A stretch of 64,000 nt of DNA, from the NCBI RefSeq assembly GCF_011045215.1, contig NZ_CP049201.1, one strand, 5' to 3'. Position numbers and translations under genes: made by a program. The notes under the pieces were generated by a model. It did no database searches and had not been told where the DNA came from. It was given only the letters and a program-made list of their open reading frames with translations. The stretch is from Escherichia coli. Lineage in GTDB: Bacteria; Pseudomonadota; Gammaproteobacteria; Enterobacterales; Enterobacteriaceae. Positions 15,726 to 20,683 of the stretch are shown here, piece by piece (position 1 is the first letter of the stretch; every line of letters starts with the position of its first letter).

Positions 15726-15802
15726 GGAGCGGTAGTTCAGTCGGTTAGAATACCTGCCTGTCACGCAGGGGGTCGCGGGTTCGAGTCCCGTCCGTTCCGC
15801 CA
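15726..15802 (+). tRNA. aspV: tRNA-Asp (GTC anticodon); island integration hotspot
   Basis: Sequence identical to the aspU copy at 7502..7578; followed by a terminator hairpin; foreign DNA begins immediately downstream. Confidence 0.95.
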
Positions 15803-15934: not shown

Positions 15935-16803
15935 TCATCTCGCTGGCAGTGCTCCCGGATAGTGTCGGGCGATGATGTTGTTCAGCTTATCAATCAACTC
16001 AGGTCGCTTGAATACGATGTGTGCAGTTCCCTTCTGAAAATACTTAATCACAAACATCTCATCCTCGTAACGGTTACTGTGCCTGTTCTCATGGATATGA
16101 TCGCTGAGACGACGGGTAACGTCAGCGCGGTTGTAGGGAACCGGTTTGCCATCAAGAAGCATCAGCATACGCTCAAGGTCAGCTAACCGGTCACGCTGCC
16201 AGCCCCAGTTAAGCCCAAATCCCCACCGATCGAACTTGACTAGTCCGGTAACGATAATTTTCGCCCCAAACTTGCAGGGGAATTTGTCTTAAAATTCCAG
16301 CTTAAACCTTTGAACACATTTATCACTCCGCGCTCAAACACCTCGCCCTTGTTCAGATGCAGTTGCTCAAACGTGCTGAGAATATTCTCTTCGCTGACGG
16401 CAGGAATGTCATCCTTTTCCAGACTGTTGTACCACTGGTCACGAGCCTGAGCATCCATGAGCGAAATCATGCCCGACTTCTTCATCAGGTCTCGCCATAT
16501 GCTGCGATCGAGATTACGGGTAATAGCTTTCATCGCCGCTTCTGGTTTCTCCATCAACCAGCAGCCGCAACGGAAATCCTGCTTCATAGCCCAGTCCAGC
16601 GCGGTTTTTCCCCCGATACTGCGGGTCAGCATCGAAACATCGTCCAGTTGTTGCATGAGCACTTCAATCTGCGCCAGCGCGGCATTACGTCCCGTGACAA
16701 TACGCTCAATGCTGGTGGAGCAAATCACGTCGGTGTGGCCGGTTAATACTTCGGGTTTGGTGAGAGTAAGCTCTGACATTATTTCGTTCCTTATATAAAG
16801 CAA
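15935..16803 (-). pseudogene. Island gene split into two ORFs (187 aa and 77 aa), probably one disrupted CP4-type hypothetical protein
   Basis: Two same-strand ORFs (16240..16803 and 15935..16168) separated by a short gap at the end of a CP4-like gene block; family not recognised with certainty. Confidence 0.4.
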
Positions 16804-16859
16804 AGCGCCAGCCGGTGAGGGCTGGCGATTATGAGTAAGTGATGAGTACTGTTCGGTGG

Positions 16860-17063
16860 TTAATCTGTACTGGTCTGTCGCAGAAGTTGAAGATGACGGA
16901 GATCGCGAACGTCCTGACGCGCACGTTCAATCCAGGGCAACAGCACTGCTGAATCGATGTTGTCTTCGTCGTTGTCGAAAATAATCATGTTCCCACAATC
17001 GATGTTGTCCTGCAGCCAGTCAATCAGAACGTTGAGAGCCACTTCGGTGGTTAATTTCTCCAT
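16860..17063 (-). CDS. Hypothetical small acidic protein (67 aa)
   Basis: ORF in operon-like array downstream of the toxin gene; no recognised motif. Confidence 0.4.
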   Translation of the reverse strand: MEKLTTEVALNVLIDWLQDNIDCGNMIIFDNDEDNIDSAVLLPWIERARQDVRDLRHLQLLRQTSTD

Positions 17064-17094: not shown

Positions 17095-17586
17095 TTACCA
17101 GTCGAAAATGTCAAATCCCGGCAGCACTTCGCCAAAGGCATCCAGATGAACAATGCCAACGGCGTAGCGACGGATAAGCGTCACTACTAACCGACGGCAG
17201 GCTTTCGACAGACCGAGACGTTTGAGGCGTAAGACCGGAAATGACCAGGCACCCAGGTGGAGCAGATAACCCGACCCGGTGTAACTAATCCATTCCGACT
17301 CACCAAAGTCTTCATTCTGGTGTGAAAGAGTAAACAGCAGAGCGTTGTCTTTCTCCGTAATATGCGCGGTACTGCACTGGATGCCATTAACGCGGGCGAC
17401 GGGTGGAAGCGGATCTTCAACGACCAGCTTTCCGGGGGAGTCAGCAACGCGAAGGGAATAACCGTTATCACAGACCACATCGATCAGCGCAGCCAGTTCA
17501 ATGCCGTCAATATCCACAGCGATCCGGCCCGCATTCAGGGCCAGAACGTTGATGGCGTCGGCTTCTACCGTCAGGGATAACTTCAT
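17095..17586 (-). CDS. Hypothetical protein (163 aa) encoded immediately downstream of the CbtA-like toxin
   Basis: ORF whose start overlaps the toxin gene stop by 4 nt (ATGA); no recognised motif. Confidence 0.45.
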
Positions 17587-17960
17587 CGATGCCCCCCACG
17601 GTATTTACCGGTGGTGATGTCGGTCACCGTTCTGTAATCGTTGCGAGCCATCAACCCGGTGGCTTTGCGGGCGCGGAGAATATCGATACTGGTGAGACGC
17701 GGCAACTGTGTTTCTGTACTGAAACCGTGACGATCGATGCGCACCAGATCGTACTTCTCCACAATAAAATTCACGGCGTCGCACAGTGATATACCGGCGT
17801 CGATATGCTCCTGAATCACACCGTCGTTGCCAAACGGCGTGTCGTTAAGCGTCAGACCGTAGTGACGATCCAACAGGTGGCTCAGAAGCCGTTGCCAGAT
17901 CTCCACCGGTGACGGGCGTGATGTAGCCTCCTGCGTTGAGGATAGTGGTTGGGTTTGCAT
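17583..17960 (-). CDS. CbtA/YkfI/YpjF/YeeV-family toxin (type IV toxin-antitoxin toxin targeting cytoskeletal proteins)
   Basis: 125-aa protein with [30 protein letters not shown]...[12 protein letters not shown]...[12 protein letters not shown], closely resembling K-12 CbtA-family toxins. Confidence 0.85.
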
Positions 17961-18010: not shown

Positions 18011-18370
18011 TTACGCGGTTGCCGCTGGTGTCGGATAAATCGCCAGGTATACGTAACCATGCGAGCCGAGGGAGTCGGCCTCGCAGGTCAGCCCTTTTGC
18101 ATAGAGCGTGACACAGTGCTGATGGCGGGGAGTGAGTTCACCGCTGGTGAGCATCAGTTCAAGCTGTTTGAGCAGCAGTGGAAATGCCTGGTCGAGATGC
18201 CGTAAATCCCCGTCGCTGAACTGTCCGGTGATGCTGGCCCGGTCAGCGAGATAATGCAGACAGTTGCCCGACTGCACCAGCCGTGCGCCAAAACAGGGCG
18301 TGATACTGCGTTTAAGCCCCCACCAGGGTTCAGTGATATCGTGGTTTACTGTCGGTATTTTATTCGACAA
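18011..18370 (-). CDS. CbeA/YafW/YfjZ/YeeU-family antitoxin
   Basis: 119-aa protein with PWWGL...[22 protein letters not shown]...[21 protein letters not shown]...[15 protein letters not shown]...[10 protein letters not shown], a near-match to the K-12 YeeU family; located directly upstream of the toxin gene. Confidence 0.88.
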
Positions 18371-18393
18371 TTTTAGCCTTCCTTAAACGTGTG

Positions 18394-18615
18394 TTAATTC
18401 AGCGTGACGCTGCGTAATACGACATAGGGGCCGTTGCGGTTCTGACGGCGTTCAGCGAAGACCGCGAGCACACCGCTGATATCCTGAACCTCCTGCCCAG
18501 CGTAGTGGCAGATGCTGCCAGACCATTTGTATTTACCCGTGCAGAAGGGAAACAACCGGGACTGCGGATGTTGGCGGTATATCGCCATAGCCTGACGTTT
18601 ACTGATAATTTTCAT
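18394..18615 (-). CDS. YeeT/YkfH-like small protein (DUF987-type)
   Basis: 73-aa ORF in the conserved position between the RadC-like gene and the antitoxin gene in CP4-type islands. Confidence 0.6.
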   Translation of the reverse strand: MKIISKRQAMAIYRQHPQSRLFPFCTGKYKWSGSICHYAGQEVQDISGVLAVFAERRQNRNGPYVVLRSVTLN

Positions 18616-18635: not shown

Positions 18636-19115
18636 CTACAGCCAGCCACGATCTGCAAACGAGGTGATCTCCATGCCGCCGACCACCAGGTGGTCCAGCA
18701 AGCGGATATCAACCAGGTCCAGAGCCTGCTGAATACGCGTAGTGACCTGACGGTCTGCCTTGCTGGGTTCAGCCTCCCCGGAGGGATGGCTATGGGCGAC
18801 AATGACAGCGGCGCAGTTATGCTTCAGACCTGCCTTCACCACTTCGCGGGGATGGACCTGCGTATGGTTGATGGTGCCGGTAAATAGCGTTTCGTGGGCT
18901 ATCAGGCGATGCTGGTTATCGAGAAAGAGCGCGGTAAACTCTTCCCGCTCCAGTGACGCGAGCTGCAGGCGCAGCCAGTCGCGGACGGCATGGCTGGAAG
19001 TAAATGACGCGCCGGTTTCACGTAGCTGGCACTCCAGCAGAGATAAGGCTTTCCTGACTGTCTGCTGGTCGGCAGGGGCTAATTCACGGGCAAACAACGG
19101 TAACTGTTGCTCCAT
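18636..19115 (-). CDS. RadC-like JAB/MPN-domain protein (YeeS/YkfG family)
   Basis: Contains [16 protein letters not shown] (JAMM-like HxHPSG motif); start placed at the internal Met (MEQQLPLF...) of the 193-aa ORF. Confidence 0.75.
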
Positions 19116-19126
19116 AGCGGCTGACC

Positions 19127-19597
19127 TCAGTCGATGATGTGCATGATGGCGTTGCATTCCGCGTGGTTGAGCGCGTAGTCCCGCAGGCGGTAGTAGTGCT
19201 CCGTCATGGCGTCGCATTCGGTACGGCAGGCATGGTGGCTGAAAGCCATCAGACAGACCGCAATCCCTGCAGCTTCGGCACTCATGTCACCGCCGTTGCC
19301 GTTCATCGTGTTAAACAGCGACCAGAGTTCATCGTTCTCCACTTCCGGGGCCATAAACGCGCCGCCGTTGCTCAGCGTGTAAAAATTCCAGATGCCGCCG
19401 CTGTAGTCCGTGCAGAAGCGGTCCATCCACGCGAAGATGGTCGGCTCAAGGATTATCCACTGCGGAATGCTGCCAAAGTGCTGCGGCCAGAAGCTGATGC
19501 GGTTCTCATCGGTTACCGGTATAGCGATAATCTGATGCTGAGCCGCAGCAGGAGCATCTGCTGCGGGTGTGAACAGTGGCAGAGTGTTATCGGTCAT
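19127..19597 (-). CDS. Antirestriction protein (KlcA/ArdB-like; YfjX/YafX family)
   Basis: 156-aa ORF with family-typical residues ([50 protein letters not shown]) in the conserved CP4 gene order. Confidence 0.75.
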
Positions 19598-19864: not shown

Positions 19865-20683
19865 TCAGCTCAGCGCCTGCTGCAGTTTTTCCGCCATCAC
19901 CCAGAGTGCCCGGTTGAGCTTAACGTCGCCGTCGATGCCTTTCACCGCGCGGGTATGGCTGCGTTTGCCTTTGGCAGTACGTCCTGGCAGCCCCCCTTTG
20001 AGCAGGTTCTCCTGGCACCGATTAAAAACTGACCACAGGTCATCCTGACGGTCTTCATAGCGGCGGGGTGTCAGTATCTGCGCTTCCGTCACCGGCTGTT
20101 GCTCTTCCCCGAAGCGGTACGTCAGCGCGGCTCTGGCAAAAGCCTGTTGTGCCGGTGGCGGGAGTAAAAGCGACTGCATCGCATCACGCTTCTCTTCCAC
20201 CCGGTCGAACACACCGAGGACTTCGTAAGCGCCTTCAATCACTTTCTCCACGACATTTCCCCGGTGTGGCACTCGCACCTCGCCAAATGACTGCCCGCAG
20301 ACGAGACCGTTGGTACAGATGGCACGGAAATACCCCGGCAACATCTGGTAACTGGACGAACCGTCATGCGAATTGAGCAGGATAATTTCCGGCACCTGCT
20401 GACCGGTTATCTGCCCGGAGCGACGCAGGCGCAGCATATGTTTCGTATGCTCACGGCGGCTCTGGTCCCTGACGCGGGTCTGGCAGGCAAAGAACGGCTG
20501 GAATCCTTCACGCTGCAGGTTCTCCAGCAGGGTAATGGTCGGTATGTAGCTGTAATGGTCTGAACGGGACACGTGCTTACCTTCCCCGAAGACGCTGGGA
20601 ACAACCTGCATTAATTCTTCATGGGTTAAGGGACGGTCGCGGCGGATCTGATTGATACGGCCAAAGCGGCTGGCGAGTCGCAT
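19865..20683 (-). CDS. DUF932-family protein (YfjQ/YafZ-like)
   Basis: 272-aa ORF with the length and sequence character of CP4-island DUF932 proteins; conserved position upstream of the antirestriction gene. Confidence 0.65.
   Translation of the reverse strand: MRLASRFGRINQIRRDRPLTHEELMQVVPSVFGEGKHVSRSDHYSYIPTITLLENLQREGFQPFFACQTRVRDQSRREHTKHMLRLRRSGQITGQQVPEIILLNSHDGSSSYQMLPGYFRAICTNGLVCGQSFGEVRVPHRGNVVEKVIEGAYEVLGVFDRVEEKRDAMQSLLLPPPAQQAFARAALTYRFGEEQQPVTEAQILTPRRYEDRQDDLWSVFNRCQENLLKGGLPGRTAKGKRSHTRAVKGIDGDVKLNRALWVMAEKLQQALS

Follow-up and report, generated by a model that had tools for sequence, protein, structure and literature searches.

A DUF5983 gene overlapping cbtA in an Escherichia coli chromosomal island and its relatives in plasmid leading regions

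We analysed a stretch of 64,000 nucleotides (nt) from the chromosome of Escherichia coli (NCBI RefSeq assembly GCF_011045215.1, contig NZ_CP049201.1), hereafter called the window, and focused on the minus-strand open reading frame (ORF) 17095..17586, which directly follows a cbtA-family toxin gene. The ORF is a DUF5983 family gene of 163 amino acids (aa) plus stop, the intact form of yeeW of strain K-12, and is part of an operon conserved among CP4-type integrative islands, in this case an island at tRNA-Asp (aspV). The C-terminal domain of this family recurs without CbtA in the leading regions of conjugative and mobilizable plasmids of Enterobacterales, in phage-plasmids and in some phages. 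We tentatively favour the interpretation that the gene may encode an accessory or establishment factor of mobile elements that is co-translated with the toxin and is not an essential component of the toxin-antitoxin (TA) system. The gene is already catalogued as an annotated member of a known DUF family without assigned function, and both its adjacency to cbtA and the enrichment of the family in leading regions are already in the literature. The present analysis adds a connection between these contexts, a coupling signal that is conserved, an analysis of selection, and two signs of modularity: domain mosaicism and fusions of the N-terminal domain to DUF957. A gene that had appeared as a possible third part of a TA module would thereby be reframed as a member of a mobile-element establishment gene set.

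Identity, selection and overlap with cbtA

The ORF begins at the first available start codon past an in-frame stop codon. This start codon, ATG at 17586-17584, and the TGA at 17585-17583 that closes the upstream ORF 17583..17960 together form an ATGA start/stop overlap at 17583..17586. A preliminary description of the window, made from the sequence alone, had reported the 163-aa ORF and this overlap with the stop of a CbtA-like toxin gene without stating the strand; both are confirmed here and lie on the minus strand. The length of the ORF alone is weak evidence, as many spurious ORFs of 100-170 aa lie nearby. The same description could not assign a family from the sequence, but one exists. 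The protein matches Pfam DUF5983_N (PF25638; aa 4-59, E 1.4e-29, 102 bits against a cut-off of 27) and the DUF5983 C-terminal domain (PF19419; aa 70-163, E 3.1e-17, 63.1 bits against a cut-off of 27). With both Pfam domains above the gathering score and a position directly 3' of cbtA, it has the hallmarks of the DUF5983 family (YeeW/Aec77), the name Aec77 being used in some UniProt entries. The identical protein is RefSeq WP_000777682.1, for which the NCBI Prokaryotic Genome Annotation Pipeline (PGAP) gives the product name 'DUF5983 family protein'. At the nucleotide level, the ORF is 100% identical to its counterpart in E. coli BE2-5 and 99.8% identical to that in ATCC 8739.

Homology to YeeW (b2006) of the K-12 cryptic prophage CP4-44 leads to the same family. 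The start of yeeW likewise overlaps the cbtA stop by 4 nt, and its product shares 56% identity with the window protein over 45 aa of the N-domain. YeeW is a truncation of 64 aa that consists of the N-domain only, whereas the window copy is intact and retains the C-terminal domain. Judged by its sequence, the window gene encodes an intact two-domain DUF5983 protein of the YeeW/Aec77 type. An acidic N-terminal domain (DUF5983_N, aa 1-48, 17443..17586; pI 4.1) with a predicted strand-strand-helix order is connected by a variable linker that is predicted to be disordered (aa 49-65, 17392..17442) to the C-terminal domain, DUF5983 proper (aa 66-163, 17098..17391).

To characterise selection, 27 full-length copies with a synonymous divergence (dS) of about 1 were compared. 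The ratio of nonsynonymous to synonymous divergence (dN/dS) was 0.19, very close to the 0.185 of cbtA, with values of 0.16 for the N-domain, 0.32 for the linker and 0.19 for the C-domain. The same alignments read in two shifted frames, as a control, gave ratios of 1.5 and 1.9. Together with the Pfam matches and the overlap kept in 38 of 38 loci, this indicates a protein-coding gene under purifying selection and not a chance ORF. A functionless remnant that decays while being carried along with the island would agree with the many truncated or frame-shifted copies (K-12 yeeW, loci L030, L031, L039 and L040, and many fragment clusters) and with the neighbouring DUF4942 gene, which is a pseudogene in the window. 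This reading is nonetheless exceedingly unlikely and already contradicted by the selection analysis, as the window copy is full length, the low dN/dS holds over 27 copies at such synonymous divergence and a length of 162-164 aa is maintained in about 25 species.

The preliminary description had named absence of the ORF from related islands as an argument against its proposal, but the ORF is clearly conserved there. Homologues were detected by blastn in 3903 of 5426 complete E. coli genomes (about 72%; median 2 and up to 8 copies), and about 25 further species of Enterobacterales carry the gene. Modules of the CbtA family are among the commonest TA loci of E. coli. A protein search returned 994 clusters at 90% identity across Enterobacterales, almost all of 163 aa. 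The family is narrow, with only 201 representatives at 50% identity among 1.8 billion proteins. In Edwardsiella hoshinae NBRC 105699 (L013), the proteins encoded by the entire DUF932-to-DUF4942 module share 99-100% identity with those of the window, which indicates a very recent transfer or an assembly contamination. Short contigs of metagenome-assembled genomes labelled Collinsella, Lachnospiraceae and Segatella copri (L034, L035, L037, L038, L042) also carry E. coli-type cbtA-DUF5983 modules, most likely as a consequence of binning contamination.

The gene upstream of the overlap encodes a cbtA-family toxin of 125 aa (17583..17960, minus strand; Pfam CbtA_toxin PF06755, E 3.3e-50). We examined the junction in 38 loci. 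One is that of the window, one is from K-12, four belong to paralogous islands of E. coli at further tRNA genes, and 32 come from a set of 35 related loci in GTDB genomes of about 25 species; the three left out are repeat copies in Serratia sp. DD3. The 35 loci were recovered with close sequences and are therefore biased to copies containing the N-domain. An ATGA or GTGA overlap is present in all 38 loci, and GGAGG, GGGG or GAGG is found 5-10 nt 5' of the start in nearly all of them. In the window, this is a Shine-Dalgarno-like GGGGGG run within the 3' end of cbtA (17592..17597, minus strand), 5 nt 5' of the ATG. Its conservation at a synonymous divergence of about 1 means that selection keeps the overlap in place. 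These conserved features are most naturally read as translational coupling between cbtA and DUF5983, and the co-translation with the toxin proposed in the preliminary description is thereby well supported. With such coupling, the output of DUF5983 would follow the translation of cbtA in both timing and amount.

The C-terminal domain in plasmids and phages and its possible role

A tblastn search revealed 287 plasmids with a match, 255 of them at less than 60% identity, and among the matches listed only aa 65-163 (approximately) were aligned. We inspected six conjugative or mobilizable plasmids of MOBF and MOBP types, from Citrobacter, Serratia liquefaciens, Klebsiella, a Pectobacteriaceae isolate and Yersinia, together with pADAP of S. 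entomophila. No cbtA was found near the DUF5983 gene in any of the six. In each of them, the gene has DUF932 as a neighbour and sits at the end of the leading region that faces oriT, at most two genes away from the transfer genes, which are SLT-traM or mobC/mobA-relaxase. In five plasmids, it directly follows DUF932 and is the last gene before the transfer genes, and in the Citrobacter plasmid DUF932 comes after it. The gene shares its strand with parB, psiB, psiA, hok or higBA, an N6-methylase or DUF4942 gene and an antirestriction gene, as well as DUF957 in one case.

The plasmid proteins have a homologous C-domain (30-45% identity) with the same invariant residues as the window protein. Their neighbourhood also resembles that of the island gene: DUF932, antirestriction, DUF957 and DUF4942 or N6-methylase genes occur in both contexts and are transcribed in the same direction. 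Unlike the island protein, the plasmid proteins lack DUF5983_N and consist either of about 100 aa alone or of about 188 aa with an unrelated N-terminal region (hhalign); the possibility that the latter region is a diverged DUF5983_N was rejected at an hhalign probability of 0.3%. Furthermore, the plasmid genes are uncoupled from any toxin gene and lie beside oriT, whereas the window gene is chromosomal and lies at the tRNA-proximal end of its island.

Genes of the leading region are read from the transferred strand in the direction of oriT (PMC11541004), which makes the plasmid DUF5983 gene one of the earliest to arrive in a recipient. In Supplementary Table 1 of Samuel et al. (Nature 2024; PMC11541004), a DUF5983 family ranks as number 72 of the families enriched in leading regions, with 618 members, a false discovery rate (FDR) p of 6.6e-199 and a median position of 2 from oriT on the T-strand. 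DUF905/YubL (number 2), DUF932/YubP (number 3) and KlcA (number 9) are enriched as well (PMC11541004), and we found that all three have counterparts in the island cassette. Stand-alone homologues of the C-domain are also present in SSU5-type phage-plasmids, beside DUF1380 and DUF4942 genes, and in phages of Erwinia and Colwellia. The single-cluster protein P0137 (259 aa), in which DUF932 is fused to DUF5983_C, mirrors the plasmid order of DUF932 directly followed by the DUF5983 C-domain; it is probably a deletion or frameshift product.

A function in mobile-element establishment or host interaction, possibly anti-defence-like, seems the most likely job of the protein because the same C-domain stands alone beside oriT without CbtA and occurs in phage-plasmids and phages. 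The C-domain of about 100 aa would be the functional core and would do the same job in islands as in plasmids and phage-plasmids. The N-domain may serve as an island-specific adaptor or oligomerisation module that could equally be attached to DUF957, and the gene would not be needed for the toxicity of CbtA or for its neutralisation by CbeA. It may further be speculated, though we consider it rather unlikely, that the C-domain is an unrecognised establishment or anti-defence effector with a fold absent from solved structures, common to leading regions, phage-plasmids and CP4-type islands. The island N-adaptor would in this case tie the effector to toxin translation, with CbtA and the effector made in a fixed ratio, and the DUF932-to-DUF4942 cassette would represent the chromosomal 'leading region' of a mobilizable element.

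Next, we built an AlphaFold2 (AF2) model on an alignment of 30 diverse sequences. The C-domain was predicted with a per-residue confidence (pLDDT) above 90 and a strand-helix-strand-strand-helix-helix-strand order, while the N-domain was poorly determined (pLDDT 50-65) and the linker (aa 49-63) remained below 50. No variation occurs at H75, D80, G106, G125, S127 and R131 among island, plasmid and metagenomic members, and there is little at S72, L84, W99, P117, L121, K122, F161 and the C-terminal W163; the domain terminates in FDW. In each of the 30 diverse members, the helix-Gly-helix (helix-turn-helix, HTH) segment at aa 117-141 is basic, with a net charge of +3 to +8, although the C-domain is slightly acidic overall (median pI 6.0). 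An establishment factor might act via this basic surface (K122, G125, S127, R131) together with the cluster of S72, H75 and D80, by binding a nucleic acid or a host protein.

The homology and structure searches that the preliminary description had proposed gave a family, DUF5983, and no solved structure resembling the model. Foldseek against solved structures returned nothing similar (best E 0.87), a sequence profile search of the PDB and searches of NCBIfam and PADLOC had no matches, and BFVD returned only other DUF5983 proteins. No recurrent weak matches appeared when the 30 diverse members were compared with Pfam at E up to 10. In PHROGs, there was a weak match to phrog_5003, a family without assigned function. 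A match of the family to a 2703-aa protein with an apparent 13 repeats (P0229) was rejected, as this protein is a multihaem cytochrome in which CSTAH had been spuriously matched to CxxCH motifs.

The helix-turn-helix segment at aa 117-141 could belong to a DNA-binding regulator with a winged-helix-like C-domain, which would act as a repressor or activator on the operon of the island or leading region, or would bind close to oriT or att. The predicted helix-turn-helix with its invariant turn glycine, S127 and R131 on the second helix and the positive charge would suit such a protein, and in Samuel et al. the plasmid family bears the label 'DUF5983; transcriptional regulator', taken from HHpred and UniProt names (PMC11541004). 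Nevertheless, a search at E up to 10 matched none of the 30 members to any Pfam HTH family. The domain is acidic overall, its sequence by our reading fits the hydrophobic positions of a classical HTH only in part, and the label 'CadC' is a database name and not a test. We therefore regard a regulator as distinctly unlikely. It overlaps with an establishment role, since DNA binding could be the mode of action of an establishment factor.

Proteins of the glyoxalase/bleomycin-resistance (VOC) fold are composed of paired strand-helix-strand-strand-strand modules. The order of elements predicted for the C-domain is unlike such a paired module, and no VOC Pfam family was matched. A small-molecule enzyme or binding protein of this fold therefore appears extremely improbable, although a preprint with an ECOD-based classification proposes the VOC fold for a Salmonella DUF5983 protein, with TflA (PDB 3PKX) as the closest structure. 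This assignment was not reproduced in our structure comparison.

The N-terminal domain and the relation to CbtA and CbeA

In the loci examined, DUF5983_N was found only directly 3' of cbtA or of a cbtA remnant. N-domain distances show only a weak correlation with C-domain distances (Spearman 0.25), and a single N type is found with five different C types. This mosaicism indicates recombination in the linker. Moreover, Hafnia alvei, Serratia sp. DD3 (four copies) and several metagenomic clusters have in-frame fusions of the N-domain to DUF957 that lack the C-domain (L041 613-978, L043 1553-1918 and L044-L047 6001-6366; proteins P0240, P0243 and P0253). These fusions comprise 118-134 aa and show ratios (omega) between copies of 0.16-0.32, which corresponds to purifying selection. 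The upstream cbtA is truncated at the fusion loci. P0166 (141 aa), a single-cluster read-through fusion of CbtA and DUF5983_N, is probably a deletion or frameshift product.

The preliminary description had suggested a third component of the TA module or a passenger gene. As a genuine third CbtA/CbeA component, the protein would be made only on translation of the toxin and would bind CbtA or tune it, as a second antitoxin, a toxin chaperone or a modulator of activity, or would be a link from the toxin to DUF957. Such a role would fit the translational coupling to cbtA, invariant in all 38 loci, an N-domain that is never seen except 3' of cbtA, and purifying selection equal to that on cbtA. A large-scale TA survey also lists a recurrent CbtA/DUF5983 arrangement, always 3' of the toxin (PMC10790755). 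In addition, E. coli B retains cbtA-DUF5983-DUF957 after IS30 removed cbeA. In the locus concerned, of E. coli B C2566 (L053 4440-6429), IS30 is found in place of cbeA, a cbtA-family gene of 121 aa stands without an adjacent antitoxin, and DUF5983, DUF957 and DUF4942 are intact.

Against this stand the C-domains without CbtA in plasmids, phage-plasmids and phages and the absence of an intact copy from all three CbtA-family loci of K-12, where yeeW is truncated, ykfI is followed by the pseudogene fragment ykfN and nothing follows ypjF. These K-12 pairs are those on which the toxicity of CbtA and the neutralisation by CbeA-type antitoxins were characterised. In Serratia sp. DD3 and Hafnia, the fusions of the N-domain to DUF957 persist although only a truncated remnant of cbtA lies beside them. 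CbtA, N and C types are shuffled, and mirror-tree comparisons of CbtA with N and of CbtA with C were equal (Spearman 0.49 for both). An AF2 prediction of a CbtA-(GGGGS)6-DUF5983 fusion showed no sign of a complex (mean pLDDT 47, pTM 0.29, N-domain pLDDT 21-38), but this is a weak test, as the paired alignment contained only 21 sequences and even the C-domain dropped in confidence. Finally, blastn in E. coli detected 10,876 cbtA-like and 7,738 DUF5983 places, so that about 30% of the cbtA-like copies are without a detectable DUF5983, counts that are only approximate because the searches differ in sensitivity.

CbeA/YeeU, the type IV antitoxin of CbtA, is encoded in the same operon as cbtA, like DUF5983, but it belongs to an unrelated family, lies 5' of the toxin gene and shows no sequence or fold similarity to DUF5983. 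CbeA counteracts CbtA by bundling FtsZ and MreB. Three-component TA modules such as TAC and ParE-PaaA-PaaR likewise have a third gene in the operon of the TA pair, with translation or transcription tied to the pair; their third protein is needed for regulation or to stabilise the antitoxin, and it strictly co-occurs with the pair. In contrast, the co-occurrence of DUF5983 with CbtA and CbeA is not strict, given the K-12 loci, the copy counts and the presence of the C-domain on at least 255 plasmids and in phage-plasmids, and its core domain also exists outside TA loci. The suggestion of a third component is thus weakened, and we consider it unlikely. The term passenger gene comes nearer, although this is not a random passenger: it is fixed and under selection within a larger conserved cassette.

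Several points weigh against the establishment factor that we favour, among them the approximate nature of the copy counts just mentioned. The restriction of the N-domain to the position after cbtA, together with the invariant overlap, is also predicted by a toxin-linked function. The leading-region argument runs through the homology of the C-domain only (30-45% identity), and the window copy is chromosomal. No oriT or relaxase turned up near it, although the island end was not searched for an oriT-like site. PADLOC matched no known defence or anti-defence family, and our literature searches found no experiment or expression data for the window gene. Searches for yeeW, Aec77, DUF5983 and DUF957 likewise found no functional study in the literature.

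The operon and the island in the window

The next gene in the transcription unit of DUF5983 is a DUF957-like gene of 67 aa (16860..17063, minus strand) with its own AGGA Shine-Dalgarno sequence, 31 nt 3' of the DUF5983 gene. It is supported by synteny in most loci and by the PGAP annotation 'DUF957 domain-containing protein' in ATCC 8739, where it is intact; in BE2-5 it is annotated as 'frameshifted'. Neither this ORF nor the proteins of other loci labelled DUF957 by PGAP match a family in the current copy of Pfam. A preprint (bioRxiv 10.64898/2026.06.09.728211) describes the same cbeA-cbtA-DUF5983 neighbourhood, followed by a small globular dimer-forming ORF, as well as DUF5983 fusions. It focuses on this downstream ORF (AntiFam ANF00264), argues that it is real and proposes a programmed frameshift. 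The DUF957-like ORF of the window is probably this AntiFam-listed spurious ORF. As it is a separate gene with its own Shine-Dalgarno sequence, no programmed frameshift is needed in the window. The fusions found here also differ from the DUF5983 fusions of the preprint in that they join the N-domain in frame to DUF957 and lack the C-domain.

Between DUF957 and DUF4942, a consensus scan detected a terminator-like hairpin (16806..16827, minus strand) with an 8-bp stem containing seven G-C pairs, followed by CTTTGCTTTA. It probably ends the cbeA-cbtA-DUF5983-DUF957 transcript. At the other end, the cbeA/yeeU-family antitoxin gene (18011..18370, minus strand; Pfam CbeA_antitoxin, 5.1e-52) encodes 119 aa and has a TTG start with a strong AAGGAAGG Shine-Dalgarno sequence. 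A promoter-like match on the minus strand (18370-18397; TTAACA, 16 nt, TAAAAT; 10/12) ends exactly at the TTG start of cbeA and is probably spurious or else implies another start. Since cbeA begins 23 nt after DUF987 and has this strong Shine-Dalgarno sequence, read-through into cbeA from upstream is suggested.

Further upstream, all on the minus strand and assigned by Pfam, follow DUF987 (18394-18615), RadC/JAB (18636-19217, longest ORF), an antirestriction gene (19127-19597) and DUF932 (19865-20683). The gene order across loci is DUF932, antirestriction, RadC/JAB, DUF987, (a hypothetical gene of 214 aa), CbeA, CbtA, DUF5983, DUF957, DUF4942 and the island end or tRNA. This same-strand order is common to the four paralogous E. 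coli islands and the about 25 species. In the window, the last gene before the tRNA is the DUF4942 gene (15935..16803, minus strand), split in two ORFs that match the two halves of the Pfam family and annotated by PGAP as 'frameshifted'. Several paralogous islands have an intact DUF4942 gene (methylase-like), and genes for DUF4942 or an N6-methylase are likewise present in the inspected plasmid leading regions. The K-12 CP4-57 homologues of the antirestriction and RadC/JAB genes (L049 2920-3869) are now named lfgA and lfgB, and LfgB is reported to be a protease that cleaves the antitoxin MqsA (PMC10846083), a functional lead for another gene of the cassette.

The CP4-like cassette adjoins the 3' end of tRNA-Asp (aspV; 15726-15802, plus strand), and all of its genes point to the tRNA. 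Two paralogous islands show the same arrangement beside tRNA-Ser and tRNA-Ile genes. The island spans approximately 15.8 to 51.7 kb of the window; no integrase is annotated in the counterpart island of ATCC 8739. The window is colinear with ATCC 8739 up to 22047 and rejoins the core genome near yafV. Between 22047 and 51755, the window carries an autotransporter, a fimbrial usher, an EAL protein, IS elements and type VI secretion system (T6SS) Vgr/Tle1 genes as cargo, where ATCC 8739 has a pco/sil copper-silver cluster.

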